In this document: positions 1 through 53,300 of the stretch, one piece after another
Position numbering within the stretch: position 1 is the stretch's first letter
Layout: each line of letters opens with the position of its first letter
Source: Candidatus Omnitrophota bacterium
GTDB taxonomy: Bacteria; Omnitrophota; Gorgyraeia; 2-01-FULL-45-10
Reading direction: 5' to 3'
NCBI GenBank assembly: GCA_028715345.1
Contig: JAQUSB010000007.1
Coordinates: forward strand, 2,287-66,286
Length of the DNA: 64,000 bases
Program-made: the position numbers and the translations under genes
Notes under the pieces: model-generated
The model's input: the letters and a program-made list of their open reading frames with translations, nothing else
Told to the model about the DNA's origin: nothing
The model's database searches: none

Positions 1-3000
1 ACGGAGCGCCTTCTTTCGTTAGGAGGTACCATACTGTCGTATTCACCAAGCGTCATACATATCGGGGGGATACCCTTCCTTGAAATATCGGTTTCTACCG
101 CAGGCAGACTGAGCACTTCATTTACTGGCCTCACTAGAGTTATAAGCACATCCATATTTTCCAGTTCTTTGCTTCCTGGTTTTATCCTGGCGTTTCTTCC
201 GGTTATAGGGATAAACTCAAATGTAAGGCCAGAGTACATACCTTCGAGCTCCGCTTTCTTTGAAGCTGATTCGGCCTCAAGGTTTGCCATCTTTGCCATA
301 TCTTCCTGAAAACAAAAGACTCTTATAGTATATTTCTCCACGCCCATATTAGACATTTCTTTGGCAATGCCGGGCACCAAAAGACCTATTTTTGTTATAT
401 CACCAAGCCCGGCTAGCGCTCTGGTTGCTATCCCTATCACGGGTGCATGATCAAGAGGAGGCACTTCCTTAAAATCAGTAACATCAACTATGCCAAAATT
501 TACACTCCATTTTCCCAGTCGTACTAGCACCGGCTTTATCCTCTCTGGAAAATCGGCTGACAAATTATATTCTGCTAAAATTCCAAGCACAACTGCCTCA
601 TATTGATTTAACGTAACTTCCTCGAACTTTGCCAGATCCCGCATATCGACAAAAAACCGTGTGCGTAGCATCTCTTTAAGTTCGTTCTCTAGGCCCCCCG
701 GGACTTTTCTTATACCAATTATCCTAATGAAATCCTGAACAAGCAGATCTAATACATTTTCGATATTTAAGTTTTTATTAACACCAAATGGCGGTCTGCC
801 AACCAACGGATCCATTTCTTTACTAATTATTTTTTGAAACTGTTCCTTCAGGTTCATGTCCAGGAGTATTTTATAAATCCTATTAATTTTATCGTCAAAA
901 TATATGCCCTCGTGGATAGCGTTGTAAATAGACCGCTCATCTATTTTTCTTGCTAGCCCAAGCTCTTTAGACTTATCTGTAATAAGCTTATTATGGATAA
1001 GTACGATCGCGTTCGTGATAGAGTGTGTTAAAATTATCGCGCAAATATATGCAATAGGATTTGCAGTAACTATCGGCATTATGAACGGGAGGATGATGCC
1101 GTTTATTGCAGTAACTATGGTGGGGGCTGCCAGCTTACGCGCATATGAAGGAGGCGCTCTCCCCTGCTCAAGGTGGTCGGTTATAAACTTATATCCGAAA
1201 GCCGCCTGTAAAGGCGTCGACAGGGCAAGTGCAAGATTCCAATCGAATTCACCAAATACAAAATATGTAATAACTCCTGTGATGAAAACAGGAATGAGAC
1301 GATACAACGATTCCTCTAATAACGGCGCGGCAAAAAGAGCTTTCATCCGCTTCTGCATCCGAGGAGTAATACGATCGAACCACGCGGTAACCGCCGAACC
1401 AGTTATTGGGGACGGTCCCTGTGGTGCCACCCCAGCAGCAGGCGTTGATGGCTGCTCCGGTTTCACCGCGGCGGGGGCAACAGTAGGCGACGACATTACT
1501 GGTCCAAGATCAGGGAGAATAAAAGATGGGTTATTAGTAACAAATACTGACGGGTCATCGCTAACCTCAAATAAATTTTGTACAGTCAGGACATCTTGTA
1601 TATTTTTATCAATAGCCCTTGAAATAGCGCCGGATCTCGCAGTAGCATTTTCATCAGAGGCAGCATAGATAAGAGGTAATTTTATACTAGCGCCTAATAA
1701 TTTTCTCAACTCATTTCGTAATTGTATCGCAAAATCATTACTGAAACATGATAGTAAGATTATATTCATATCCGAAAAGACCTTATTTGTTTTTGCGTTC
1801 TTTGCCAATGCCTCAGCCATCTCGATATAACTTATAGCGTTTGTGATATGCATTTCCTTTCTTTGCGCTTGGCTCGGCTCTCCCTGCGAAAGCCATAAGT
1901 GATTTTTCCCACCATGGCCATTAAATATAAAAGTGGTTACACCGACCGCATCCTCTAAATGTTTTAATATGTCATTTTTACTCTGCGGGCCAATGAGATC
2001 TTTGGTTATTATCTCATCTTTTACGCCAGTCCGCTTGGCCATCCCAAGCCAAATAGCTTCTTCGTCCGCAAACATATCCTCGGCATGCCTGGCTATTATC
2101 ATTTTTTCAGTTCTGCCCCCCAAGATCCCCCTGTTGCGATTTTCCTGAAATTGTTTCTCAACATATTCAACAGCGTTATTAATCTCGTCATCCGTTAAAA
2201 GCATATATGATTCTGTCATATGCCTTAAGACATTTTGCGCGATGATAAACGAAGCGGCTGGTTTGTTATTAGCGACCGAACTAACGCATCGCTGAAATCG
2301 GTTATTTTGCATAATCACGGAAATGCTTATAAAATCGATTGAGGGAACTTCATAATCGGCGGCTATGGTTGATCCCTCTGTGGCACGTGTTATCATGGCT
2401 TTTAGAAAAGTCTCTTTCAGAGAGGCATCTTTGACTCCAGTTAACAACCTACCAAAAATAGTCGCAAGTTTTTCTTTGATAGCTTCAGAATATGGTATTT
2501 TGGTATATGGATCCACGCCTCTGCCATATAATTGCTTAGGGACAAGTTCCATAAATTTTCTTATAACCCATGCTATAAGAACAATATTATTTGTTTGTAG
2601 CGCAGCACTTCCATATGCGGTAAACATGGTCTTGTAAACTCTTTTAAGATACGGCGTTACTTCACCATGTGGTGCTGCATAGGGCCCTCCAAAAAAATAG
2701 TGTTCCAGTATTTCTGAGTTTCTAAGATCTTTTACGAGTTCTCGAAACTCCTTAAGAGAAAGTGATTTTTCTCCAAGAAGAATAGCTTTCGCTTTTGCAT
2801 ATTCTTCCTGCGTTAGCGCAAAGACTTCGTTGACGGATATTGCGGAGCCTTGTATTATTGGGGACGATCCCTGTGGTGCCACCCCAGCAGCAGGCGTTGA
2901 TGGCTGCTCCGGTTTCACCGCGGCGGACGGCGGTGTAATAGCAGGTGGTGCTAACGAAGTATACCAAGCGAGAAGCGGCGATATTATCAAAGCCCCGAAG

Positions 3001-6000
3001 AAATAATACAATCCCATGCCCATATAGTTATGGTAGATACTTAATGTGACTATAGCAAATAACATAACGTATTTTAGGTTAGAGTAACTCTGCTTTAGTG
3101 TTAGTTCTTTTGTTAATCCGCCCTGGGGAACCCATACTAACATTTTTTTGTTTTGCCGTATTTCGTTCTTGATATCATCGATATATGATTTAATGACAAA
3201 AATGCTTACTTCTACGACATTTACAGGAGCCAACATTATGAACATAGTTAAACTTTTTATCGATTTATACGTATCTCCCACGCTCCCGTTCCCGATAAGA
3301 GCAGAACCATAAAGTTCAAACGAGATAAGTATTCCATAAAGTACTGTCAATAAACTAAGCGAGCCATAGAATATATAATGGCTAAAAACCATGTTGGTCA
3401 AAATCAAAGCTAAAAGCATCGGTGAGGAGAGATAATTTTTTGTCGCAATATATAGCAAATATTTATTAATAAGAGTTGCTTTATTTTTAACTAATTTTCC
3501 TGATTCGTCCGGCACTTCTCTCTTAAAAAAAACAAAACTTAATTTATTCCCCTTCCACCACCTCGCCCATTGTTTAATCTGCAAAAATATATTGGGCGGT
3601 ATTTCTTCAAGAGTCACAATATCTTCTGTTAAAGCCGTTTTTAAGAATATTCCTTCTACAATATCATGACTGAGATAACCGTCTTTCATTTTTCCGGCTA
3701 TTGCATTCAGAAAAGTATCGATATTCCACGCTGCGCCATGGCCTATGAAATTAACTTGTCTAAGCGCTCTCCAAACTCTTGCGCCCCTATCTCTATACTT
3801 TTTGAATATATGATAACTATATTTAGTCAGCACAGACTCTTCGGTATTATAAGGCTCAACCCTGCTCTGAAATATCCCATATTCTCGATTTGAAGGATGC
3901 TCGATCTTTGAGACCAAGCCTTTTATCGAATCTTTAGTCCAGATAGTATCCGAATCTGCCATAGCAAGATTATTTGCACCTTTTAATCCAGAGATATCCC
4001 CAAGTATTTCATCAAAAACCTTTCCCGCGGGGCATGCGGGAAACCTAGGGTCACTATCTAGCGTGCCGTCGGCCCTTAAAGAATTTTTAAGCCACAACAT
4101 GAAATGCATATATCCGCCCCGTTTCTTTTCCCAATTATTTATTGAGGAATCCCGGTGAATATAAAAAACCCTGTCTTGTCCGTATTTTTTCTGTAATTCC
4201 AAGACCCTATCTCTTTCCAACTCTCGAATGCCATCTGGAGAACTGCTAAAAACTACCCATTTAATATTAGGGTCATTGTTGTTTTCAATGGAAGGGATAA
4301 AGTCTTCATCGAAAAATTTTAACTCACTTTCACTCCTCAATAGGATTGGATAGTAAGATATTGTTTTATATTCCGGCGGAATCCCGCTCTTCAGATCTAC
4401 TCCCGGCAATATTAAAGGGTGGGTAAAGCTTAATGCTTTTGTAGCTATGCCTTCAACGATATTGTAATTAAGTATAGCCATGAAAAACACGTTCAATGCC
4501 GCTATAAAAATATTTGATTTTGACCAATCTATAAATGTAGCAAACGCGGCTGACATCAAAAGCGTCGCCACAATGGTTGAGTATATATATAGGTAGGGCG
4601 AATATTTTTTAAGGAATGGCTCGCTCGACGGAGCCGATATTGTTAATCCGCCGACTTGTATTATTGGGGACGGTCCCTGTGGTGCCACCCCAGCAGCAGG
4701 CGTTGATGGCTGCTCCGGCTTCGCAGCTGCAGCTATAAAAGCTGCAGCTACTGCGGTTGATAAAGGCCTGCTCCCATTGAGATCAAGTGTAGTGGCCGAG
4801 AGCTTAAGAATTTTATCAATTTCTTTCTGCTCCTCGGGAGACAAATTATTTTTACCAGGCGCTTCAGGCTCTTTAATACTATTACTGGAGATATTTATAA
4901 ATAAAGTTATCGGCTCAGCTGAAGGATTCAGCCTATCATAAAGTGTAATCGCCATAAGCTCTTTTTTATATCTAAACACATTAACATAGCTTATATCGTT
5001 AAATTCGGCGTCCTTAACATTAAGTATTTTGCAAACCTTCGATCTATTTTTTACCAGAATGTCAAAAGTTTTATACACATCGTTAGCATATTTGATAGAC
5101 GCTTCATTCTCGGGCTCTAATTTCGATACGGCTTTCCATGTTGCCCAGTACGCCCAAAACTCATCTTTAAGCTCAGAAATACCGGGTCGAACGAGCTTAT
5201 TATTCAAATGCGTCCATTCATGCGCCATGGTTTCCACAAGCCATATCATTGCACGGCGTTCCCCGTATTTTTCACGTAAATCCATAAACCTATCGTAATT
5301 TATGATAATTAGGTCGAGCTCGGAATCCGCCGACCCATCAAAAGAACGCAGCTCCATCTTCTCGGTATTAGTTATTAATAATACCGGGTAGCGTTCTATG
5401 CCTGCATCTAGTATTGAGAATCCTTCTAACCTGTCATACGCTTCTTCGATTAATGCTACATTACTATTTGATCTATCAATAGATGCTTCTATGTCTTTTT
5501 TATACATGCTTGCCACTAATTCACCCGGCTTCCTCAAGCTCATCCTAAGAACCTTAAGTATTCTCTTTACAGTCTCTTCATCTTTATGTATTATAAGGTC
5601 GCTTGAGATTGCTTCTGTTGCAGCGGGTGACTGCTTTTTTTGGGTTTTCCTACCTGTAATGTACGCTATTGTACCGCCCGCAATAACACTTCCTATTGCA
5701 ATTGCCGCGCTCTTAATAAACTGTCTTCTCTGATTGTGTATTATTGGGGACGGTCCCTGTGGTGCCACCCCAGCAGCAGGCGTTGATGACTGCTCCGGCT
5801 TCGCCGCGGCGGGTACAGCGGCAAGTGGTATTTTACCGGCTACTTTAGTCAATGTACTGATCTTGGCTAATATGCTTTCTGCTTTTTCGCGGCTTTTATC
5901 GGGTATTTCATAGTCAGTGGCTATCTTCCGGCATAATTCAACGGACAATTCATTGCCTATCGTATCGTTAGCGCACATTTCCATTATAAGATCCAATGCC

Positions 6001-9000
6001 TTGATAAAATTTTCCTCACTCAAACCATAGGCGGCATCTTTTTTAGTTTCCAAATACCTAAATTTAATTCTATTAATTGTTTCGACATAGTTAATATATT
6101 TATTCGGCAGGCATGCCAAGAGGCCTGCCCTATTGGCATCCTTCATCATACCATTCAGTATCTTAGATGAAATCGAGTCGGGAGGGAATAATGCGTCCAA
6201 TTTTTTATCATCGAGAATTACTTGCGCGCTTTTGGTCATCTCATAGTAATCCCCCGTATCGTATCCACTACTAGTTTTAATCAATCTCTCTTCGATAGGA
6301 ATATCAAAAACAACTTCGACGCGATCCGTGTCACCTCTACTTGCGACATAAGGCTCTCTGGAGCAATCTGACAGTGTAGATTTACCTACTCTTTGGTACA
6401 AGCCTTCGCGTAATATTTTTTCAAAGGCAGATAATGAAGTTGCATGAGCAACATGATTTAATATCTTTGGAGAAGGCGCTTCTCCTTGCCCCTTTGGCTT
6501 CGCCGCGGCGGACGGCGTCTCACCCATAAAATCGTTGGGGAAACTGCCTATAGGAAGTGCGAAGAGCTCCGCCTCCGAATTCGTTGCCGAAGGCCCTGAT
6601 TGTAAAAGTTTTCCTTCAAGAAAAGCACTAAAAGCATCTTCATCCATTTCCCTAAGTGTATTTATAGCAAATTGGAATTCGGGTAGCATCCGAAGACTGG
6701 GATCAAACTCAACGAAATTACCGTCTCCTGTAACCAGTAAGCGATAGATCGGTTCGGGGTGCGGCCAAATTCCTAAAGCATACGCTACAACCGAAAGCGT
6801 GTTTAATAATGCCGCAATATCACTAGCCCGTGCCTCGGCACTGCCTTTGCCGATACTATCGTAATCGAAAATAAAAAGCGGATTTAGATTTTGATGATTT
6901 ACTATTGTTCCATATTGATGGCTGGCGGAAAAACTTTCTTTCCAAAGTATGCGCAGTAAGGCCAGGTTACGCACAATCATCTCATTAAATAGTTTTCTGC
7001 GATCTGCGGGGTTTTCGCGTTTAAGGGTAGGATCAAGATATTCAAAAAAACTGTCCCAACGGCTATCTGCTGTGCGCCAGCTATGGTGGGACCGGATATC
7101 TCCCACTAGCGATAGTTCTTCTATTCTTTCCGATATCCCTACCTGATAAAAAAGGACCTCCTGTCCCTCAATAATCTCCCTGTCATCGGTTTTCGAGAAA
7201 CCTACGTGCTCGAGCGCAGTTTCTGCTTCAACCAATCTGGTGACATCAGTCACCGGGATACCCTTCTTTGCGCCTTCCCATATTTCCCCGGCGTGGCGAG
7301 GATCAAAAGTAGCGGATAAAAACAAAGGTTTGAATATCGCGCCGGGTTGAATAATCATGTCTTCTGCCTCGTGTTTCAAACCTCTGGCCTTTAATTTATC
7401 GAATATAGCGTCGTTTGTATCAAAATATTCATTAAATTTATTTTTTAGCCACCAGCTTGCGCCCAGATAAGTCATGTTTTCCAACGTTAGCACTCCTCCG
7501 CGCAAGCCATACGGTGGTTTACCCTTATAGAAAGGTATACGTACCCCGTCTACTGTTCTATATTCCATTCGGTCAGCTATACCTACGCCCTTAAAAACAT
7601 CCGAGCACGGCTTACCGTTTTTAGTGAACTTGGTATGCACGGCTCGATTGTGCATCAGGTTAGCGCTTGGGTTTGCGCGCATTGGTATAAGATAAATATT
7701 TGGATTCGCGCTATCTATATTAAAAAGCCTGAGCACTTCCCTGGCAGTTTCCGATAAAGACGATACAGGTAGAATAAATCTTTTTCCAACGGCCTCGTCT
7801 ATCAGATCCCTGCTATTAATGTTCTTCAAACTTGCCGGCACGAAACTGAGATCTTCGTCAGGAAACGCCTTTTTTAAGCCTCCGCTATCGTCATGAATCT
7901 CGTCCAGCGCGCGTAATATTTCCTTGACCTCTTTGCCTTCTCCAAGTTTATGCCAAACTTCGTATATATCAACTATGGCACGCTCACTGATATCAGGTCT
8001 TAAAGCACGTATAGCGCCTATAAATTCCGCTGTTGGGCCTTCGGCGGATGGTGCTGTTAAATATACGACGCCCCCGGTAATCTCTTTTATCACATCCGCC
8101 ACTTCTTCAGAGTGTGACTTTTTGCCCGTGATTTGTGAAATTCTATAGATAAATTGCCTTAAATCTTCAGGTCTGCCCGTTTGCTGGCTCAAGGCATACC
8201 CCATTCCGACTAATGCCACACCTAAACCGTATGTATATTCAGGTTCTACCGAATTATAACTGCCCCATCTTCCTTTCGCCCATTCTTCTATTCGTTCATA
8301 TTTAATTTCCAGCCCTACATCATTGTCTTTCATTACATTGTATCCATATTCGAAAGCTTCTTTTCTCCATTCCCCCATAGAGCCGGCCGCAATATCTACG
8401 TTGTGCTCTTTCTCTAAAACGCGCATCACTCCCATGGCGGAAGCAATCGGATAATCGATGTCATGCTTTATATGCCCCATTCTTTTCATTAAATGAGTAA
8501 ATTCATGGGCAACTGCCAATCTGAATCTCCTGTCACTTCCCAGAGTAGAAAGAAATATATTGGGTGTCCGCTCAAATAATAAAGAGAAATATTTTGCTAT
8601 TATCGGAAATCTACTCCCGTATCCTAAATATGAACTACCGCCCATCCTTGTTGTTTCCATGGAATCAAATAGACCATAGAGCGTGGCTGCTCCGATTAAT
8701 GGTATATAGAAAGAAAATATAATATTTTCAACAACACCGGTTGCTGATGGGTTTATGTACAATGTAATAGCCAAATACGCAATAGTAAGAAAAGGTGCTA
8801 TGAATATGGAAATCATGGCATCTTCCCGCAAAACGTGTTTTATATGATAAAACAAGTTTAACGGTTTCACTTTTTTTACAAGTTCCAGCGCGATTGCCTG
8901 TTTTTGTTCCGCTTCTTCATCGGGTAAGAAAATATTCACTACCTCAACGGCTTCTTCCGATACAATTTTTTCCTGTTCATTCGTAATCTTACCGCTTACC

Positions 9001-10937
9001 ATATTTTTTAAATATTCCCAGCGGCTAACCGTTCCCTCCTCATGCGTAACTATCGGAAGTCCTGTCCCATCCTCGGCAAGTTCCGGCTTTTGCGCCAGAT
9101 CGGATATTTCATCAGAGCCGGAAGAGGACCCTCTGTCGGGTTTGGCGGGCGGCGCTTTGAGCCCGGCGCCGATCATTGCCTCGGTCATGGTGGGGCATAA
9201 CTGGGCGGCTGTCGCCATGGAACTCTTCAAAACCGACGGCATAGCATCTCTTATCCAAATATTTTTCTCTCCCGATAGTATCTTGAAATACGGGCACTCG
9301 TAGCCGTCGCAAGTCCTGAAATTCGGTATTATAGAAATATAGGCGATATTCTTCTCTTTGAATTGTTCGGTCAAATTTTCGGTGTGGAAACCGCCGGTAA
9401 CTACGATGGAGGATTTCTGAACCTGTTTCATAGAATTAGATTGCTTGCGTGAAACAGGTTCAAGCGTCATATTCTTTATAAACGCATTGTCGCGTTTGAA
9501 TGAATACTCATAAAATTTCTCGATCCGGCCGCGATATCCGTCTAATCGGTATAAGTCCTGAACCTGTTTCATGCCGGCGATCGACTCACTTGAAACAGGT
9601 TCAAGCAACGAGGCTTCCTTATTTATAAAAGAGGTGTAATTCCGTATAGCAAAGGCGCCTTCATTAGCCTTGTAATACCTGTAATCGGCTCTCGTAAGCG
9701 AGATATTGAATATATTTTTCAGGATGGCGAGATCTTTGGAAAGTTTATCAAGCTGTCTTTGCTTATCGTTTTGATACAGGACCTCGCGGATCTTCGTTTC
9801 CAGCGCCCCGACCTCATCGATCACTTTCGACTTATCGACGGCTGCGTAGGACGAGATGTAGACGATATATTTTTCCAGCTCGGGGAAATTCCCGACCGGG
9901 ATATCCGCCTGCTTTGCCTTATTCACCAGATATCCGTAAAATTCTTCCTGCGGGGTAATCCCGGCCTTAAACTCCACCGTCTTCACCACCAGCTCCTTCA
10001 TACCGTTCTTAGATAACCTCTTCTGCAATCTGTCTATAAGCTCATCCCGCTCGTTATTGGCTTTGCGAAAGTCTATCTCGTCCTCCCGTTTCATTACCTG
10101 GTTCAGCAGGAATATGTCGGGGAAAGATTTTATATCTATCAATTTATCTCTTGAGTTCGCTGCAAGATAATTCAGGTAATCTTTGAATTCGATATTGCCG
10201 GCCTTGTATTGAGTGTATTTCAGGTCGAGCGAGAGAAGCTCCTTGGAATATATCTTCATTTTGAGATTGGTAAGGATATGACTCAGGTTTTTCAGCAGCC
10301 TGTCGACATCATCTTTATCTTTTAAAGAATTGCGGTAAACTTTAAGGTTATCGATATATAGCCTTGTATCCTCTATGCCCCACAGCCTCGCTTTATCGGG
10401 ATTGTTCAGTGCAAAATATTCGGCGCCGTTTACCAGGCCTTCTTTGACAAAATGATCCGCGACACGCTCGCGTTTAGCCCTGTCCTTTATGCCCGTAAAT
10501 ATCGAAAGGTCATAATCTTTGGCGCCGCCTTCAAGGTTTATCTCGCTAACGCCGTATTCTTTATTGAGATATTCGATTATGTCTGCTATGGCGCGCTGGG
10601 CATAGTAGTTACAGTGGGCATCCTGGATGTGGATAACGGTGGTTCCGGTCTTCCTGCTTCCGATAGCCGGCTCCCAGGAGTCTTTTACAGTCCCGAGAGA
10701 TCGCGGTAAACTGAACGTCTTTACGGTCAGCTGTTTTAAAGCGCCCGTACTGGCAGGACTGGCAGCTCTTTTATCAGAACCGACGCTAGTAAGTTCTGAG
10801 GGCGTTCTGCCAGCCCAGGCAATATCGTAACATATAGTATTAGCTAAAAAGGCCACCAAGGTGATGAAAGATATCATCGCCTTGAATGGCCTCTTAGAAA
10901 TTAAACCGACACTCCTATCAGATCTAGCGTCTAACAT
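1..10937 (-). CDS. giant modular membrane-anchored multidomain protein; 3' end beyond window (>=3,645 aa in window)
   Basis: ATG at 10937..10935 is the first start after an in-frame TAA; a possible AAGGA RBS lies 11 nt upstream. I translated every codon from 10937 to 8461 by hand in one frame (forward triplets beginning at positions divisible by 3) with no stop. Spot translations at 6481-6540, 5761-5820, 4681-4740, 2581-3140, 1441-1500 and 1-60 sit in the same frame and read as sensible protein. The rest was read less rigorously, but the length of my running translation matches 10937/3 = 3645 codons. The N-terminus reads MLDARSDRSVGLISKRPFKAMISFITLVAFLANTICYDIAWAGR (signal anchor). It is absent from the ORF track because the stop codon lies outside the window. 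Lower GC than the rest of the window. Confidence 0.8.
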   Translation of the reverse strand, partial: MLDARSDRSVGLISKRPFKAMISFITLVAFLANTICYDIAWAGRTPSELTSVGSDKRAASPASTGALKQLTVKTFSLPRSLGTVKDSWEPAIGSRKTGTTVIHIQDAHCNYYAQRAIADIIEYLNKEYGVSEINLEGGAKDYDLSIFTGIKDRAKRERVADHFVKEGLVNGAEYFALNNPDKARLWGIEDTRLYIDNLKVYRNSLKDKDDVDRLLKNLSHILTNLKMKIYSKELLSLDLKYTQYKAGNIEFKDYLNYLAANSRDKLIDIKSFPDIFLLNQVMKREDEIDFRKANNERDELIDRLQKRLSKNGMKELVVKTVEFKAGITPQEEFYGYLVNKAKQADIPVGNFPELEKYIVYISSYAAVDKSKVIDEVGALETKIREVLYQNDKQRQLDKLSKDLAILKNIFNISLTRADYRYYKANEGAFAIRNYTSFINKEASLLEPVSSESIAGMKQVQDLYRLDGYRGRIEKFYEYSFKRDNAFIKNMTLEPVSRKQSNSMKQVQKSSIVVTGGFHTENLTEQFKEKNIAYISIIPNFRTCDGYECPYFKILSGEKNIWIRDAMPSVLKSSMATAAQLCPTMTEAMIGAGLKAPPAKPDRGSSSGSDEISDLAQKPELAEDGTGLPIVTHEEGTVSRWEYLKNMVSGKITNEQEKIVSEEAVEVVNIFLPDEEAEQKQAIALELVKKVKPLNLFYHIKHVLREDAMISIFIAPFLTIAYLAITLYINPSATGVVENIIFSFYIPLIGAATLYGLFDSMETTRMGGSSYLGYGSRFPIIAKYFSLLFERTPNIFLSTLGSDRRFRLAVAHEFTHLMKRMGHIKHDIDYPIASAMGVMRVLEKEHNVDIAAGSMGEWRKEAFEYGYNVMKDNDVGLEIKYERIEEWAKGRWGSYNSVEPEYTYGLGVALVGMGYALSQQTGRPEDLRQFIYRISQITGKKSHSEEVADVIKEITGGVVYLTAPSAEGPTAEFIGAIRALRPDISERAIVDIYEVWHKLGEGKEVKEILRALDEIHDDSGGLKKAFPDEDLSFVPASLKNINSRDLIDEAVGKRFILPVSSLSETAREVLRLFNIDSANPNIYLIPMRANPSANLMHNRAVHTKFTKNGKPCSDVFKGVGIADRMEYRTVDGVRIPFYKGKPPYGLRGGVLTLENMTYLGASWWLKNKFNEYFDTNDAIFDKLKARGLKHEAEDMIIQPGAIFKPLFLSATFDPRHAGEIWEGAKKGIPVTDVTRLVEAETALEHVGFSKTDDREIIEGQEVLFYQVGISERIEELSLVGDIRSHHSWRTADSRWDSFFEYLDPTLKRENPADRRKLFNEMIVRNLALLRILWKESFSASHQYGTIVNHQNLNPLFIFDYDSIGKGSAEARASDIAALLNTLSVVAYALGIWPHPEPIYRLLVTGDGNFVEFDPSLRMLPEFQFAINTLREMDEDAFSAFLEGKLLQSGPSATNSEAELFALPIGSFPNDFMGETPSAAAKPKGQGEAPSPKILNHVAHATSLSAFEKILREGLYQRVGKSTLSDCSREPYVASRGDTDRVEVVFDIPIEERLIKTSSGYDTGDYYEMTKSAQVILDDKKLDALFPPDSISSKILNGMMKDANRAGLLACLPNKYINYVETINRIKFRYLETKKDAAYGLSEENFIKALDLIMEMCANDTIGNELSVELCRKIATDYEIPDKSREKAESILAKISTLTKVAGKIPLAAVPAAAKPEQSSTPAAGVAPQGPSPIIHNQRRQFIKSAAIAIGSVIAGGTIAYITGRKTQKKQSPAATEAISSDLIIHKDEETVKRILKVLRMSLRKPGELVASMYKKDIEASIDRSNSNVALIEEAYDRLEGFSILDAGIERYPVLLITNTEKMELRSFDGSADSELDLIIINYDRFMDLREKYGERRAMIWLVETMAHEWTHLNNKLVRPGISELKDEFWAYWATWKAVSKLEPENEASIKYANDVYKTFDILVKNRSKVCKILNVKDAEFNDISYVNVFRYKKELMAITLYDRLNPSAEPITLFINISSNSIKEPEAPGKNNLSPEEQKEIDKILKLSATTLDLNGSRPLSTAVAAAFIAAAAKPEQPSTPAAGVAPQGPSPIIQVGGLTISAPSSEPFLKKYSPYLYIYSTIVATLLMSAAFATFIDWSKSNIFIAALNVFFMAILNYNIVEGIATKALSFTHPLILPGVDLKSGIPPEYKTISYYPILLRSESELKFFDEDFIPSIENNNDPNIKWVVFSSSPDGIRELERDRVLELQKKYGQDRVFYIHRDSSINNWEKKRGGYMHFMLWLKNSLRADGTLDSDPRFPACPAGKVFDEILGDISGLKGANNLAMADSDTIWTKDSIKGLVSKIEHPSNREYGIFQSRVEPYNTEESVLTKYSYHIFKKYRDRGARVWRALRQVNFIGHGAAWNIDTFLNAIAGKMKDGYLSHDIVEGIFLKTALTEDIVTLEEIPPNIFLQIKQWARWWKGNKLSFVFFKREVPDESGKLVKNKATLINKYLLYIATKNYLSSPMLLALILTNMVFSHYIFYGSLSLLTVLYGILISFELYGSALIGNGSVGDTYKSIKSLTMFIMLAPVNVVEVSIFVIKSYIDDIKNEIRQNKKMLVWVPQGGLTKELTLKQSYSNLKYVMLFAIVTLSIYHNYMGMGLYYFFGALIISPLLAWYTSLAPPAITPPSAAVKPEQPSTPAAGVAPQGSSPIIQGSAISVNEVFALTQEEYAKAKAILLGEKSLSLKEFRELVKDLRNSEILEHYFFGGPYAAPHGEVTPYLKRVYKTMFTAYGSAALQTNNIVLIAWVIRKFMELVPKQLYGRGVDPYTKIPYSEAIKEKLATIFGRLLTGVKDASLKETFLKAMITRATEGSTIAADYEVPSIDFISISVIMQNNRFQRCVSSVANNKPAASFIIAQNVLRHMTESYMLLTDDEINNAVEYVEKQFQENRNRGILGGRTEKMIIARHAEDMFADEEAIWLGMAKRTGVKDEIITKDLIGPQSKNDILKHLEDAVGVTTFIFNGHGGKNHLWLSQGEPSQAQRKEMHITNAISYIEMAEALAKNAKTNKVFSDMNIILLSCFSNDFAIQLRNELRKLLGASIKLPLIYAASDENATARSGAISRAIDKNIQDVLTVQNLFEVSDDPSVFVTNNPSFILPDLGPVMSSPTVAPAAVKPEQPSTPAAGVAPQGPSPITGSAVTAWFDRITPRMQKRMKALFAAPLLEESLYRLIPVFITGVITYFVFGEFDWNLALALSTPLQAAFGYKFITDHLEQGRAPPSYARKLAAPTIVTAINGIILPFIMPIVTANPIAYICAIILTHSITNAIVLIHNKLITDKSKELGLARKIDERSIYNAIHEGIYFDDKINRIYKILLDMNLKEQFQKIISKEMDPLVGRPPFGVNKNLNIENVLDLLVQDFIRIIGIRKVPGGLENELKEMLRTRFFVDMRDLAKFEEVTLNQYEAVVLGILAEYNLSADFPERIKPVLVRLGKWSVNFGIVDVTDFKEVPPLDHAPVIGIATRALAGLGDITKIGLLVPGIAKEMSNMGVEKYTIRVFCFQEDMAKMANLEAESASKKAELEGMYSGLTFEFIPITGRNARIKPGSKELENMDVLITLVRPVNEVLSLPAVETDISRKGIPPICMTLGEYDSMVPPNERRRS
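1402..1474. repeat. linker direct repeat copy (encodes VAPAAVKPEQPSTPAAGVAPQGPSPI)
   Basis: Near-identical to the other copies. Followed in the protein by TM helices (LIPVFITGVITYFVFGEF; IVTAINGIILPFIMPIVTANPIAYICAIIL). Confidence 0.85.
1620..1985 (-). other. caspase-like (C14/CHAT or clostripain-like) cysteine peptidase fold candidate
   Basis: VGVTTFIFNGHGGKNH (His at 1914..1916) is followed ~57 residues later by NIILLSCFSNDF (Cys at 1746..1748), the caspase His/Cys dyad pattern. Both were translated by hand. Confidence 0.45.
2854..2926. repeat. linker direct repeat copy (encodes PPSAAVKPEQPSTPAAGVAPQGSSPIIQ)
   Basis: The 73-bp copy has one substitution (GACGATCC vs GACGGTCC). Fully hand-translated in frame. 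Confidence 0.9.
2960..3470 (-). other. polytopic TM region after the GT2 domain (at least 5 predicted helices)
   Basis: Hydrophobic stretches such as LLYIATKNYLSSPMLLALILTNMVF, IFYGSLSLLTVLYGILISF and YVMLFAIVTLSIYHNYMGMGLYYFFGALIISPLLAW, translated in frame. Confidence 0.5.
3550..4280 (-). other. processive family-2 glycosyltransferase catalytic domain (cellulose-synthase-like) within the giant ORF
   Basis: Motifs in the order expected for this family: VFYIHRD ... KKRGGYMHFM ... LAMADSDT (DxD, 3948..3956) ... GHGAAWNIDTF ... LSHDIVEG ... QIKQWARWW (QxxRW, Q at 3570..3572). The two key motifs were translated by hand. Flanked by TM helices on both sides. Confidence 0.6.
4670..4718. repeat. 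linker direct repeat copy (encodes AAFIAAAAKPEQPSTPAAGVAPQGPSPIIQ)
   Basis: Near-identical 49+ bp core. Followed in the protein by TM helices (YLYIYSTIVATLLMSAAFATFIDW; NIFIAALNVFFMAILNY). Confidence 0.85.
5208..5222 (-). other. HExxH motif 2 (VETMAHEWTHLNNK)
   Basis: The reverse complement of 5205-5235 translates in frame to VETMAHEWTHL. Confidence 0.45.
5750..5812. repeat. linker direct repeat copy (encodes AAVPAAAKPEQSSTPAAGVAPQGPSPII)
   Basis: ATTATTGGGGACGGTCCCTGTGGTGCCACCCCAGCAGCAGGCGTTGATG(A/G)CTGCTCCGG core, at least 97% identical to the copies at 4670, 2854 and 1402. Confidence 0.85.
6489..6520. repeat. degenerate copy of the linker repeat (encodes ETPSAAAKPKGQGEAPSPKI)
   Basis: Shares GGCTTCGCCGCGGCGG with the other copies. 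In-frame translation confirmed. Confidence 0.5.
8493..8507 (-). other. HExxH motif 1 (LAVAHEFTHLMKRMGH), putative zincin-like metallopeptidase site
   Basis: Hand-translated in frame: RLAVAHEFTHLMKRMGHIKH. The family is not identified; a DUF4157-like pre-toxin peptidase is one possibility. Confidence 0.45.
9418..9462. repeat. intragenic palindromic unit 1 (13-bp perfect stem TGAACCTGTTTCA / TGAAACAGGTTCA, 19-nt loop)
   Basis: Seen directly in the sequence. It encodes LEPVS-(x6)-MKQVQ in the giant ORF. Confidence 0.7.
9559..9603. repeat. intragenic palindromic unit 2 (same 13-bp arms, unrelated 19-nt loop)
   Basis: Same arms as unit 1, 141 bp away; the loop sequence is entirely different. Again encodes LEPVS...MKQVQ. 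Confidence 0.7.
10812..10877 (-). other. N-terminal signal-anchor/TM helix of the giant protein (AMISFITLVAFLANTICYDIAWA)
   Basis: Hydrophobic stretch at residues ~21-42, directly after a basic N-terminus. Confidence 0.6.
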
Positions 10938-11116
10938 ATCTAATAGTGTCCTTATACTTTTTAAATCTTTAAATTAATGGGCGAAAAAATATACCCTGCA
11001 CAACATACATTGTACCGGGTGTTCTTTTTTCCTAGCGTCTACATATATAAGATTACACTATAATATCATTATCGGCAAGGAACAAAATCTTGCTTTTTTA
11101 TGTCCTAACATTGTGC
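10938..11116 (-). promoter_or_regulatory. AT-rich intergenic region with a putative sigma70-type promoter for the giant gene
   Basis: 179-bp gap after the etfA stop. On the minus strand, TTGTTC-N17-TATAGT and TTGCCG-N17-TAATCT are both candidates. Confidence 0.3.
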
Positions 11117-21102: not shown

Positions 21103-21178
21103 TGGTGGAGCAGACCGGGTTCGAACCGGCGACCCCCACGTTGCGAACGTGGTGCTCTCCCAACTGAGCTACTGCCCC
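21103..21178 (-). tRNA. tRNA-Ala (anticodon CGC)
   Basis: Hand-folded. Acceptor stem GGGGCAG/CTGCTCC with the G3:U70 alanine identity pair; GCTC/GAGC D-stem; anticodon loop TTCGCAA (anticodon CGC); T-loop TTCGAAC; encoded 3' CCA. 76 nt. Confidence 0.85.
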
Positions 21179-47380: not shown

Positions 47381-50300
47381 TTATGCCGCCGTCCAGAATT
47401 CGCGCATTATGAGCTTCAGGCGCTCTATTGCGCTCGCGGTCAATTCCGAAAGCAGTCTTATGGCGCTCTTCGAGCAGAACTCTATCCTGTCAATGGTGTC
47501 CTGCGCCGTCTCATTCTCTTTCTCGGGCAATCTTTGTAATAGAACGTTGGCATCGCCTTTGTAGCAGCCCTTGAGAATATTCCTGAAAAACATGCCGATC
47601 CACGGATTTTTTTCATCCGATTCGTACAAACGCGCGCAGATAGCCCGCATGAACAGGCTGGACTGATAAAACGTCTTTTCCGCAGATCTCATATTATTAT
47701 AGCCCTCGGGAAGTTCAAAACCGAGATCCCGGACTTCTTTAAAAAGGGCCGGTTCTTCTTTCACCAGGGATCTCACTATATCCTTCGAGCGCTCTCCCGT
47801 AATGACAATTATTCTTTTTACATGGTCTTCGGGTTTGGCGGAACGGAGAAATTTTCTAAGCCCCTCTTTATCCTGGAACGCCTTACAACCCACGATATCG
47901 TCTCTGCCGATCTTTTTCCTTATATCCCTTAATGCGTCGGCCATCGTTTCCGTAGTGCCTACCTCATCCTGGAGCACCAGCGCCTCCACCCTGTCCTGAT
48001 GGAAAATATTGATCGTCTGCCAGATGTTGAATACATCCTTACGGCTTAAGGTCATACTTCCGGGGCCAAGATGCCTGCCTATCCGCGCTTTCACGATCTC
48101 TTCAGCGCCTTCCTTTATTTCGGTAATGAGCGGATGGCTTTCCAGCGCCTTCATGGCAGCGTCTCTTCTCTGCCAGAATTCATCCGAGCCGATACCGGTA
48201 GAGGTTGTGCCTGCCGATGCCAGAACAAGTTCAGGCTCGTTCTGCTCAACCGCCGGCGGTTGCACTTTATCATCACCTGGCGTAGCCGGCTCAATGCCGT
48301 TCTGCGCTTCAAGGTTTTGAGACGATCCTTCATCTGTAGACGCCAGGTCTTCCACCGCCCCTGTTCCGACGAGATCAGCCGGCGGCATGTATCTGTCATC
48401 GTAGCCTGCGCCGAATATGTCATCGAGCCTCGTCCAGTCCAGCATCGGTTCCTCTGCCTCTTCCTGCGCTCTTTGATATAAACTTCTGACTATAAAGATC
48501 ATGAAATCTACCCGCGGAGCCGCATCTTCTTCCGTAAGATATACTGACCGGGCATAACACGTTATAAGCGCCTGCCTCGCTTCTATTTTTTCGGAATCGG
48601 ATGTCTGAGGGTTTGTAAGCACTTGCATTTTTTCCAAGAAGAGAGACCTATTGCTTTGTATATCATATACCATGAATATGCCAAAAAGACGCAGGGCAAC
48701 GTCTCTTACCGTAACATTGGATGACGGTAACGCATAAAATAGCCCCACCGTGTTTTCTTTAAGCCATCCCATAAAATCACTTAAAGTCATGTCAGCAGGA
48801 ATTTCTACATTATCTCGCATCGAAGCAACAAACTCTTCTTCCGGGCTAAGGATAATGTTCACAGGCTGTATATCGGCTTCACGCTGTCCGCCTAATACCC
48901 CAGCCGGGAATATTATTTCACCGTCATCCGTTACTGTCACTTTAAACGCATCGCCTGTCACATAATGCGGAGTGGTATTTTCCCCGATAGTTACATAATA
49001 TTCGCCTTCTGTCGGCGTCGGACGGACCGTTATACTTTCTACCGGCACCCCTTTATCTTTGGCAACGGCTTTTTTGATATTGTCAAAAGGTGCGCCAGCC
49101 TCCGCCTTTTTCGCGTCCCGGGCTGTAACAGCCATAGCCGCGATCGCCGCGCCTATTCCTGCGCCGTCTTTGGCCTCGAAGACTTCGAGCTTCTGGACAT
49201 AAATACCTCCGAATATATCGGCCAGAGCTTCTTTCATCATTCTGATATATCCAGGATAATTTAAAAGCGGCCCGTCCACCGCATATGCGTATTCGCCGGT
49301 CGGTTGATAAGTTCCTTCTCTCTGCATAACGATACCTGCGAATGTAGCGGCACCCAGCCGAGCGGATCTTGACATGATATTATGCGCAATGGTCCTGACT
49401 TCCTTAACATCGTCATCGGTCGGGTCCTGTATCCCCATATCCGTAAAGTATTTCTTCAAACCATCCATATTTCCGGCCAGCCATAACGCCTCGATCTCGC
49501 TCATATTCCTGGCAGTGAAACCTTTATAACTATCCTTCTCATAATCGTGATCAGTGAAGGTAGCGGGCAGAGCGCCGTTATGATTAGCAAACAAATTATT
49601 TGCGCGAACCTCTTTTTCGAGCATGAGCCCGAACAGAGGCCCTACATATTTGCCGGAAAGCCTCTTTTCTAAAGGATGGACACCCGGATTCGAGGAAAGC
49701 CTGTCCACTTCGGCATCCAACCTCATCGCCTCAAGCTTAGCGCTACCTACTTCCAGAAGATTAAACGCTCCGGATTCCAGATTGACCGAATTTCCGTTCT
49801 CGTCAAGCATATCCGTATTATGGCCTGTGGCGAATACGCCTCCGGCGATCGTTCTGGGATTCAAAAACATGCCGTAGAGCTTCACTGTTTTTGTATCATT
49901 ACAGATTTTGACGATCTTAATGTTGATCTTATCGGTCTGCAGGCCTGCTTTCGCCAGAGCTTCATTCATAAGCGCCGCGACATCCTGCCCCATTATCCCG
50001 TCGAAATTGTAGCCTTTGACATTACACTCCGGCGTAATGGCATTTTCGCTTGTTCCTACTTTTTTCGTAGCGAAAGAAAATGTGAAGCCGGTGCTTAAAT
50101 CCCCCGACAGATTATATTTATCTGCGAAAAATCTTATCTTTTCCGCGATAAAGTCAAAGAGCTGTTTCCCCGCGCTTGCGCGTATTTCCTCCGGCACAGC
50201 GAAAGTAAGCTCGTGCTTTTTTTCGAGCGTATGGTTACCTTTAAATTCGACAAGACCTACGCGGAAATTTGTCCCTCCCAGGTCTAAAAATAGGGTCTCG

Positions 50301-53300
50301 CCCTTCTCGTCGCCCGTTAGCCTTTCTGTCTCCGTAACTATATTGGAGAGCGACGACTGATTTGTGCCGCGGAGCATAACGTCTCCCCTGAAATTCATCG
50401 CGATCTGTTTCAATGTAGTTACAGCTATCGCGAAAATGTTCGGCTTTACTCCGCCGAAGTTCGCGCGGTTCTCCGTAACTAACGCGATAAGCTCTTCCGC
50501 GCTTTTTTCCGCCGATTTTCTATCCCCGTTTATGAAGATTATCTCAAGAAATCGATCTACTATCGCGTTGAAAGCTTCAGCCTTTACTTGTTCCGACGCA
50601 TCAAGCCTTACATACATGCTTAATGCTTCTACCAAAACTGCATCCGCATTAGCCTCCTCGCCTATAGGTTTATTCGTGGCTATGCAAACGGCTTGCCTGA
50701 TCTTTCTCTCCGCGCCCTCGCGCATTTCGGCAGTTTCTAATTCGGTTATCTCGCGATTAAGCCTTGCTATATCGGCCCCCAGCTTCTCTTTTTCGGCTTC
50801 CGAGATAGAGGGCTCATCTTTACGGCCTGTCTGTTTTCTTATAAGTTCGGCCCTTTGAGCTCTTAGCTGGCTTATCCTGGCGCCGAGCGTTTTGGCGGGT
50901 TCGGCAGGCGCGCGGACAGCGGCATCGTTCGCCGGGGCTTTATCCGATAACGCAGCATTAAATGCGGTGAGTTGTCCGGTCAATCCGTCATCGGTTAATG
51001 CTTTTCTCACGGCCGCTATATTCGCTTCCTCACCCGGCAATTCCGCTACTTTAATATCTTTCGCGGCGGCAACCGGGTCGATTTTTGCAAGCTCGATAAT
51101 ATCGACTATCGCCTTCCCTCCGCCCATAGGAGGCCGTTGAGTGCCGGTAAATTCGTCTTTAGACTTATTTATTAATTCCCACGCTCTGGATATTCCATCC
51201 GCATATAAGCCCACTTCACCTATCTGTAAAAAGAGGCATCTGGCGATCTTATCGGCCAACTTCTCATCCGTGTCGATACCGCCCTTTAGCCTCGCGGCAA
51301 ACGCTTCGCGCACTGCCTGATTCTGATGCAGACTGTCGATAACAGCTTTCTCTCTGTCACTGAGCAATGCATAATAGGAAGCGGGATGGAAATCGACGGT
51401 TTTATTTGCCCCTTTATTATCAACGACTACTCTGTAATCGGGATTGCCGTCCAAAGCTGCCAATACTTGCTCAGGTCTCCATATAGCGGGGTCGATGTAA
51501 ACAGCGTCGGCGCCATAACTGCGGGAATGATCACGTAGTTTCCCGAGCAGCCTCTTCCATATCTCGGGATGATCCCATTGCAATTTAAGCAGCATATTCA
51601 TGGTATGCCTGCCGGGAGCACCGTTAAGCTCGGCCAGATTAAATATATTATTAATACCCAGCGCGGCAAGATCGCGCTTTACCCATTGCTCGTGGATAGG
51701 TAACACGATCGGCCGTGAAAATGCACTACTCTGAGGTATCTGAAAAGTACCTGCACGCAGGGTCAATTCCGGCCCTATATCTACGGAAGAATAGTAAAAT
51801 GCGGTATGCACAACTCCTAACGGACCGCTCCGGTTGACGGCAACGTCATATCGACCCAAAGGAATTTCCCGGATCGCGATAGTAACGTTGTGACTGAAAC
51901 CACGCAAGGCATACCAGCGCGAAGTCTTGCTGAATTTGTCATCCGATACCGAAACAAGCCGCGCAAGTCTTATGAACGAACTGACATCCGGCCCATCCCA
52001 CTCGCCTTTTTCCTCAAGCGCTTGTAGTCTCGCCTTCCATTCGCCCGAGGCGGCGCTCATAGCTTCTTCTCTCATTGCAGGCGTCGAACCTATCCCGCTT
52101 CTTTCGAATATGTCGCGGATCAGATCCCTCACCCTGAACTTTTTTAACTCAGGATATGTAAAGTACCGGAGTGTTGTTTCGCTAAATAAAGCGTCGGGCC
52201 GATTCATCACTAATACCGAAGAACTGCTACTTAATTCCCATATCTTGGATCTCGCATAATCTTGGAATTCGACGTTGATACCTAAGCCGGCAAACCATCT
52301 GCGCAATGATCCAAGATCAAGCTTAACCTCTACTTGATCCGCGGCATGCTGCGCGTAAGCGGCAAGTTCTTCTGCTAACGCCTGCCTTTCGGACGCGATA
52401 CGCTCGGCCGCGTATACTAATCCGGGCAGCCAATCCATGTTTTCCGCGCCAATACGCACTAACCCGCAATCAACGCTATAATAAATACGCTTCCTGACCT
52501 CTTCCGATACTACGCTCCCGGCGTTCACCCTTAAAACTTTTATACCCTTGTCGCTGACGTTGGTGCAGATCTCAAATATCTGCTCACCATTTCTCATATA
52601 TGTCAGGACATCGCCCTCTTTGATAGCATTTGCATCCAAGGGGTATGTTCTGGAGATCGAAAATAAATCGACCAGTAATTTCGTTAATGACGCGAAATCA
52701 TCCCGTACATCTTTAATGCGGGGCCGCAATTTTTCGGGCGTTTCTTTTGCGGTAATATCCGGTAAGAGCGGTAATCCCTCTAGTTCCCTCCCGACCGTAA
52801 GCATAATCTGCGCCGCCGCGGGATTGTTTATTTCGGTCTCCGTAAGAGATTTTCTTTGCCGCCTCGTTCCTTCCGCCAGGGTTTTAATTTTAGCGTGAAA
52901 TTCTTTTCTTGCCGATACTAATTCAGCGGCGCTTCTAGCGATCTCAGATAACCTATTTACATTTTCGCCGCTTATATTTACAAGCTGCCAGTTGTCAAAA
53001 TCATGCCGCTCCGCGTCCATCGAAATAATGTCTTCCGCGGTAATTTGTAATATCTTCAGCCGCCCATCCTGATCGGCCGCAAGGCAAATGCAAAACTCCC
53101 GCTTTTCGACCCTGCCGTTGGTTAAAATATCTCCTGCCCTGATAATAGAGTTCTCCGGGATCGGCTGAGATCGCCCTGAATAGAAAAGTACCCGATATAA
53201 ATATCTGACAAGCGGATCCCGCCTTTCCAACATTTCGGCAACCCAGCTCTTTAATTCATCGGGATCCACACCGCTATATTCTTCATATGAATTCGGCAAA

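Follow-up and report, generated by a model that had tools for sequence, protein, structure and literature searches.

Near-identical copies of a spacer cassette at successive module junctions of a giant Omnitrophota gene, probably of recent intragenic origin

Results

A giant modular gene with a repeated linker

The window analysed here is a stretch of 64,000 nucleotides from Candidatus Omnitrophota bacterium (assembly GCA_028715345.1, contig JAQUSB010000007.1, positions 2,287 to 66,286 of the forward strand), the start of which is occupied by a giant open reading frame (ORF) on the minus strand in which a short, proline-rich linker recurs between unrelated modules. The stop-free frame extends over window positions 3..10973, the ORF starting with an ATG at 10937 and continuing beyond the first position of the window. 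The corresponding database entry (P0001, locus tag PHI58_02250, from a Candidatus Omnitrophica metagenome-assembled genome) comprises 4,407 aa, is itself still partial, ending at the end of a 67-kb contig, and forms a cluster of one sequence. The gene family to which it belongs has more than 300 homologues, all from Omnitrophota and 2,000-6,000 aa long, which have only the first ~600 residues in common (40-70% identity); in the family layout, a Tiki/TraB-like N-terminal domain (N-domain) is followed by highly variable modules. About 12 hydrophobic segments are present in the giant protein, and its features are collected in Table 1.

Table 1. Coordinates of the giant ORF, its modules and the linker copies in the window.
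Feature	Position	Strand	Description
Giant ORF	3..10937	-	3,645 codons in the window; stop-free frame; 100% match to P0001
N-terminal domain	9054..10937	-	Family-defining; signal-anchor, then apparent Tiki/TraB/ChaN/EreA-like fold with helical insert
Module B	6534..8828	-	Two hydrophobic helices and HEFTH motif; no assigned fold; weak Peptidase_M78 match (E 0.025)
Decayed fifth copy	6476..6520	-	PSAAAKPKGQGEAPSPKIL; B/C junction; 16-nt exact 5' edge in common with L4
Module C	5829..6533	-	Orphan, no recognisable family
Linker L4	5739..5810	-	AAAKPEQSSTPAAGVAPQGPSPII; junction of module C and module D; followed by sub-threshold twin-arginine-like RRQFIK motif and hydrophobic helix
Module D	4749..5732	-	HEWTH motif, putative zincin-like; distant copies in P0009 and P0043; no PDB or Pfam match
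Linker L3	4659..4730	-	AAAKPEQPSTPAAGVAPQGPSPII; junction of HEWTH module D and module E
Module E	2934..4652	-	Membrane-embedded family 2 glycosyltransferase (GT2), MdoH-like or cyclic beta-1,2-glucan-synthase-like; 71% identical to P0002 residues 638-1241
Linker L2	2853..2924	-	AAVKPEQPSTPAAGVAPQGSSPII; junction of glycosyltransferase module E and module F
Module F	1494..2846	-	Legumain/caspase-fold domain (clan CD-like), invariant His-Gly...Cys
Linker L1	1401..1472	-	AAVKPEQPSTPAAGVAPQGPSPIT; junction of legumain-like module F and CPBP-like module G
Module G	3..1394	-	CPBP-like intramembrane module (EExxxR, FxxxH, HxxxN) and start of further C-terminal sequence

Within the first 9 kb, a repeat finder recovered a family of four direct repeats (1386-1472, 2838-2924, 4644-4730 and 5724-5810), which is the sole dispersed repeat family of note across the 64-kb window. 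Defined codon-wise, the core common to the four copies (L1 to L4) is 72 nt long and encodes AA(A/V)KPEQPSTPAAGVAPQGPSPII, in full AA(A/V)KPEQ(P/S)STPAAGVAPQG(P/S)SPI(I/T), a peptide with 7 prolines in 24 residues, the remainder being mostly Ala, Gly, Ser or Thr. Near-identical direct repeats had been noticed here in a preliminary description that left their strand unstated, and the computational analysis bears this out, a 38-mer from the core having 4 matches at <=1 mismatch and 0 in 100 shuffles. As was also stated there, the copies are all in frame: they lie on the minus strand within one stop-free ORF, and their start-to-start spacings (1452, 1806 and 1080 nt) are each a multiple of 3. Pairwise identity over the core is 92-96% (3-6 differences per 72 nt), and the longest exact runs common to the copies measure 35-59 nt, whereas the 60-nt flanks on either side of the cores are 23-33% identical, which is the random level. 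The range of 0-2 substitutions given earlier thus holds for the inner ~57 nt but not for the full core. Over these inner 57 nt (19 codons), the four copies carry two substitutions in total, both C>T and both replacing Pro by Ser, and no synonymous change.

The limits of the identity are uneven between copies, L3 being the first to depart on the 5' side and L1 on the 3' side, a pattern to be anticipated from conversion tracts or from serial local duplication, and the variants at the 5' edge track gene position, GCG AAG being found in the decayed copy, L4 and L3, and GTG AAA in L2 and L1. The decayed copy, previously reported as a degenerate fifth repeat, is genuine although incomplete. At ~6496-6511 it matches the 5' edge of L4 exactly over 16 nt (CCGCCGCGGCGAAGCC), and it encodes AAAKP..QG.APSP.I. 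With this copy included, the cassette stands at five successive junctions, B/C (decayed), C/D, D/E, E/F and F/G. No mutual similarity was found between the modules so separated, in agreement with the earlier claim. A transmembrane (TM) helix, said to follow each copy, is present after three of the four; L2 has no hydrophobic segment after it, where the soluble legumain-like module F starts, but has one before it instead.

The cassette has a GC content of 61-65% inside a gene body of 38-43% GC, on account of its Pro, Ala and Gly codons. This composition, together with a nucleotide identity beyond what the peptide would need and the lack of synonymous changes, could be taken as a sign that the identity is kept by selection on the nucleic acid, for instance on mRNA structure, on a pause or processing site, or on a protein-binding or recombinase site for programmed module switching. 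Selection on DNA or RNA had indeed been suggested, but found no support in the analysis and is considered very improbable: the RNA folding z-scores are near zero for all copies (-0.34 to +0.37), Rfam gave no match, be it at the gathering threshold or with the limit relaxed to E<=1, the cassette lacks inverted repeats and was seen in this gene alone within the window and the public collections, and the two inner substitutions alter the peptide, as expected of young neutral copies. Furthermore, no recombinase gene was noticed beside the giant gene, the adjacent genes encoding electron transfer flavoprotein (ETF) and acyl-CoA dehydrogenase.

The least probable of the explanations weighed here is an assembly artefact, in which modules of different genes or strains would have been joined at a shared repeat. 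In its favour, the sequence derives from a metagenome assembly, in which this gene reaches a contig end and carries a partial annotation. However, each linker copy can be told apart by variants of its own and by its flanks, no exact run reaches the length of an ordinary read, the reading frame continues across all four joins, the GC content at third codon positions (GC3) is uniform (0.34-0.41) from module B to module G, and the adjacency of modules F and G is found in a second protein of the family (P0075) as well.

The linker and its junctions in related giant genes

The closest relative found is P0002 (a Logan contig), which is 57% identical to the window protein in the N-domain and 71% identical in module E; in P0002, module E comes straight after the N-domain. 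Homology in module E sets in ~12 residues beyond L3 and breaks off 6 residues short of L2, and the P0002 junctions around this module are different Pro-rich sequences. The P0002 gene contains neither a DNA trace of the cassette (best local score 17 versus a shuffled mean of 19) nor internal DNA repeats. As the genes neighbouring the two loci differ, orthology of the P0002 and window loci is not established. P0075 joins F-like and G-like modules and shows a 17-residue alignment gap exactly at PEQPSTPAAGVAPQGPS. The homologues of module G in relatives begin right after the position of L1, and in 22 such relatives the 50 residues upstream of G vary, most of these stretches not being Pro-rich; the window protein is the most extreme case. 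The order of modules differs between relatives.

The proposed check of whether related giant genes carry the same linker gave a negative answer, as it was found in neither P0002 nor P0075, in none of the 22 G-module relatives, and in none of the 280 family proteins examined (0/280). It was also absent among the 142 matches of an exhaustive HMMER search with the L2-F-L1-G segment. At the nucleotide level, the GTDB representative genomes contain no exact 28-mer of the cassette, a blastn comparison with the PLSDB plasmids returned no match, and the other 53 kb of the window hold no copy; the degenerate pattern TPAAGVAPQG gave only chance matches, in unrelated high-GC genes or genomes, among the GTDB genomes and JGI metagenome contigs. 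A concatenated 88-aa linker query yielded nothing at E<=1 and missed even its source protein, and hence is uninformative. Across these collections, the linker is private to this gene and lineage-restricted.

Internal DNA repeats of the family genes were sought with a k-mer/extension script. P0016 has three to four copies of a TM-hairpin junction cassette between unrelated modules, with 63-93% nucleotide identity, and P0024 has two junction-cassette copies of 167 nt that are 90% identical. P0016 also provides a clear analogue of a further explanation, in which the window cassette would be a small mobile or dispersed repeat, akin to Rickettsia palindromic elements or to miniature inverted-repeat transposable elements (MITE-like), inserting in frame into tolerant inter-module regions. 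Rickettsia palindromic elements were reportedly described by Ogata et al. in 2000 as inserted in frame in coding genes; the window cassette is like such elements in being a short repeat that adds a peptide without a break in the frame. Relative to the window N-domain, P0016 has four in-frame insertions that coincide with palindromic repeats and encode the peptides VIARRPKADEAISK and DCPPGRGMPKVGTVPI, a similar small palindrome, GGGGACGGTCCC, is present in the window linker, and the absence of the F/G linker from P0075 is consistent with insertion. The palindrome in the linker is, however, a consequence of its Gly-Pro-Ser-Pro codons, and the cassette as a whole is non-palindromic, lacks inverted repeats, whether terminal or long (the window yielded 0 inverted-repeat pairs), and folds no better than shuffled sequence. 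Moreover, in contrast to Rickettsia palindromic elements, all copies share one orientation, one frame and one gene, with none in the other 53 kb, in the GTDB representatives, in the JGI metagenomes or in PLSDB. An origin as a mobile element is therefore judged quite unlikely.

The repeats of the P0016 gene (GCA_041643055.1 JBGGHI010000035.1) are an observation in their own right. In locus L022, palindromic MITE-like repeats occupy positions 689-744, 1329-1415, 1803-1859, 2039-2094 and 2637-2668 within the coding region of the N-domain, and their sequences (GGGACTGTCCCC...GGGGACTGTCCC and CCGTCATTGCGAGGAGGCCGAAGGCCGACGAAGCAATCTC) resemble in-frame Rickettsia palindromic elements.

Modules of the giant protein and the question of proteolytic processing

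The N-domain of the more than 300 Omnitrophota giant proteins corresponds to no Pfam family. It appears to adopt a Tiki/TraB/ChaN/EreA-like fold with a long helical insert, an assignment which, like that of module F, was made by fold comparison rather than sequence search; PDB sequence searches with modules D and F and the N-domain gave nothing useful. Module F has a caspase-type alpha/beta fold with a His...Cys dyad and no Pfam or NCBIfam match, weak C13 and C11 matches (E about 1e-3) being obtained only in three relatives. Module E resembles cyclic beta-1,2-glucan synthases in a protein search made without the N-domain, a search that was saturated and missed P0002. In module G, the motifs LEESLYR, KFITDH and THSITN occur in this order within TM helices and are kept in relatives, with no PF02517 match above the gathering score (relative P0169 reaches 21.0 bits versus the cut-off of 22.4). 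The short family members P0143 (918 aa) and P0182 (905 aa) consist of the N-domain and the CPBP-like module only. Modules B and D both carry AHE(F/W)THL around HExxH and may be distant paralogues, despite the lack of BLAST similarity between them.

The HExxH and caspase-like domains named in the preliminary description are thus real features (HEFTH in module B, HEWTH in module D, the legumain/caspase fold in module F), and it had been proposed there that the linker is a processing site at which a polyprotein is cut by such domains of its own into separate membrane proteins. In the window protein, module F, module G, the HExxH modules B or D, or the N-domain would be the candidate protease. Such processing concerns the function of the linker and is compatible with a recent recombinational origin of its copies. 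Several features would suit it: the catalytic residues of module F (invariant His-Gly...Cys) are intact and in cis, module G has all three CPBP motifs, the N-domain is similar to the TraB/Tiki/RRSP superfamily, some members of which are endopeptidases, and a linker copy stands on either side of module D and of module F. That giant proteins of Omnitrophota are cleaved has also been speculated in one preprint (West-Roberts et al., 2023, 10.1101/2023.11.21.568195). As in polyproteins, a repeated junction sequence stands between functional units, with protease-like domains in the same protein. Polyprotein junctions, whether viral or in the Porphyromonas gingipain/HagA proteins, are nevertheless short motifs that are conserved across relatives and matched to the specificity of the protease, and the P1 residues of clan CD peptidases (legumains, caspases and metacaspases) are Asn, Asp or Arg. 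The window linker is lineage-private and contains no Asn, Asp or Arg, its single Lys being located before Pro. Furthermore, relatives that keep modules E, F or G (P0002, P0075 and the 22 G-module relatives) lack the linker sequence at the junctions, whereas conservation of the protease would lead one to expect conservation of its site, and the absence of synonymous divergence indicates recency rather than upkeep by selection. The polyprotein proposal thus finds half of its support, in that the protease-like modules are real; the lack of conservation of the linker disfavours it, and a processing site is regarded as unlikely.

The region directly after L4 contains a twin-arginine-like motif, NQRRQFIKSAAIAIGSVIAGG, at about 5660-5735 on the minus strand, which would be usable for twin-arginine translocation (Tat) only if exposed at a new N-terminus, and which in this respect would suit cleavage. 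It resembles the TIGR01409 model but scores below threshold (14.3 bits versus a cut-off of 16.7), and a Tat signal is therefore not claimed. The motif may be a relic of the signal peptide of an exported protein that used to be encoded separately, or may be an ordinary TM anchor.

Codon composition also changes abruptly along the giant gene, GC3 falling from 0.55 in the N-domain to 0.34-0.41 in modules B to G, compared with 0.59-0.68 in the neighbouring housekeeping genes (11117-62398). The same drop from the N-domain to the variable part is observed in three relatives (L021, L022 and L023), and could reflect imported or fast-turnover tails, or weaker codon selection.

The remainder of the window

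Every sizeable gene examined between 11117 and 64000 is on the minus strand, and the cumulative GC skew falls steadily over the window. Two long minus-strand ORFs that are unrelated to the giant ORF, at 47381-53779 (2,132 aa) and 53671-58557 (1,628 aa), overlap by ~100 nt. Residues 1116-1549 of the former constitute an embedded hexokinase (PF00349 and PF03727); the latter has no Pfam match at E<=1e-5 and includes, at 55816-55994, a tandem pair of 89-90-nt repeats that are 83% identical. One tRNA-Ala(CGC) is located at 21103-21178.

Discussion

The arrangement of the linkers bears the marks of concerted evolution within one gene. High identity among the four copies is accompanied by no detectable DNA similarity at the equivalent junctions of P0002, the identical tracts have sharp edges that differ between copies and abut unrelated flanks, and no synonymous change has accumulated in the inner 57 nt despite the existence of an older, diverged member of the cassette family. 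The lack of synonymous divergence, the sharp and uneven edges and the decayed older copy together indicate that the present identity is young and arose inside the gene, while the decayed fifth copy indicates that the cassette family is older than its present near-identity. The recent homogenisation put forward in the preliminary description is thus supported by the 0 synonymous differences in 19 codons, the sharp edges, the decayed copy and the absence of the linker from relatives. On balance, we favour the explanation that the linkers are copies of one spacer cassette, recently spread or homogenised by intragenic recombination, and that they mark module shuffling rather than constituting a conserved functional signal; this is probable, though far from assured.

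Under such recent homogenisation, the near-identity of the four copies would stem from very recent copying within a single gene and not from long-term selection, and two routes can be envisaged: gene conversion could have acted between Pro-rich junctions that were already there, or the insertion of a module could have duplicated a junction. The pattern of edge variants fits gene conversion biased towards neighbours, or unequal exchange, and fits equally well the duplication of junctions at the insertion of modules D and F, because each of these is bracketed by a matching pair of linkers. The encoded peptide would be an inter-module spacer rich in Pro, Ala, Gly, Ser and Thr, most likely disordered, which probably acts only as a flexible tether. 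With 7 Pro in 24 residues and the low confidence of the module F ends, where the last 32 and the first 14 residues of the AlphaFold2 model have a predicted local distance difference test score (pLDDT) <50, a flexible spacer is the simplest role. The repeats themselves, their frame, their placement at the edges of modules, their restriction to one lineage and the lack of synonymous change are direct observations; recombination as the mechanism, the disorder of the peptide and its role as a tether are inferred.

A by-product of this arrangement would be that recombination between any two in-phase copies, with 35-59 nt of exact identity, deletes or duplicates whole modules and leaves the frame intact. 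The minimum homology for RecA-type recombination in E. coli is roughly 25 nt, and since the linker copies are in phase and their exact runs exceed this length, module-precise deletions and duplications are to be expected. The rearranged order of modules in P0002, with breakpoints at the linkers, suggests indirectly that such events may happen, and recombination at the linkers would fit a family in which module content is so extremely variable. The earlier idea that the repeats drive the gain and loss of modules thus receives indirect support, in that the module E homology with P0002 stops near the linkers, module order varies and the copies are in phase.

Several observations nonetheless weigh against recent intragenic homogenisation as the explanation, or restrict its reach. 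Repeated junction cassettes were seen in only 3 of 120 sampled family members, and as far as visible they are therefore no general mechanism of the family. P0075 has no linker at its F/G junction, and since gene conversion can hardly create a linker where homologous sequence is absent, some copies at least may stem from insertion. For both protease-like modules, D and F, the linkers on the two sides have matching edge variants, which would fit a role in cleavage, or a history of module insertion, as well. Alleles with deleted or duplicated modules are predicted ones, and the privacy of the linker to this gene holds for the window and the public collections.

Compared with the known giant proteins of Omnitrophota, which in the accessible parts of two preprints are described as TM-rich and multi-enzymatic (West-Roberts et al., 2023, 10.1101/2023.11.21.568195; 2026 preprint, 10.64898/2026.06.07.730766), the window protein comes from the same phylum and likewise combines unrelated enzyme-like modules on one polypeptide, interspersed TM helices and peptidase-like domains, and is mostly dark to Pfam. 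Its Omnitrophota origin, its several TM segments and the presence of GT2, legumain-like, CPBP-like and HExxH modules in one ORF are all characteristic of these proteins. However, its known, partial length of 4,407 aa is below the thresholds of 10,000 aa (2026 preprint) and 30,000 aa (2023 preprint), and the Tiki/TraB-like N-domain family is not described in the accessible parts of either preprint. A term search of both main texts returned neither 'linker' nor 'recombination'. Nucleotide repeats in long genes are mostly 'dissolved' according to the accessible part of the later study (10.64898/2026.06.07.730766). In contrast to such decayed repeats, the linker repeats of the window are near-identical.

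In modular polyketide synthases (PKS), short, highly identical stretches act as natural recombination points for the exchange of modules. Like the genes of these synthases, the window gene is very long and modular, and short stretches of highly identical DNA recur within it. Within PKS genes, gene conversion and concerted evolution between modules are described in the accessible part of a published study (PMC12391348). The homogenised stretches of PKS are, however, situated inside homologous domains of paralogous modules, whereas in the window gene the spacer alone recurs, between modules unrelated to one another. Modular glycoside hydrolases and cellulosomal scaffoldins offer another comparison, with Pro/Thr-rich linkers of low complexity that are poorly conserved between orthologues. 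The window linker is similarly a Pro-rich, extended spacer between independently folding modules, but unlike those linkers, which are usually internally repetitive and vary from junction to junction, it is one non-repetitive sequence of 24 residues, reused at four junctions with near-identical codons. The window linkers would represent concerted evolution, a process known in kind, of an inter-module linker in a poorly known gene family.

Omnitrophota possess some of the longest bacterial genes known, nearly each of them with a different module content. On how these genes are built and rebuilt, the present locus provides a concrete clue, with one spacer cassette at five successive junctions, exact in-phase homology sufficient for the clean removal or duplication of modules through ordinary homologous recombination, and breakpoints relative to the closest relative that are located at linker junctions. 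In addition, the linkers define module boundaries in a largely unannotated protein, and offer one defined candidate sequence for the long-speculated cleavage of giant proteins. A bolder proposal, which is tentative and rather doubtful, is that the linker is a reusable in-phase junction cassette for the capture, deletion and reordering of modules in Omnitrophota giant genes, perhaps doubling as the cleavage site of a self-processing polyprotein. If the linker is no more than a recently homogenised spacer, the locus exemplifies concerted evolution in a neat but ordinary way; if the bolder proposal were true, near-identical cassettes like those seen here and in P0016 and P0024 would explain mechanistically why almost every giant gene of the phylum has a module content of its own. 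The main value of the locus is as a handle on the remodelling of Omnitrophota giant genes.

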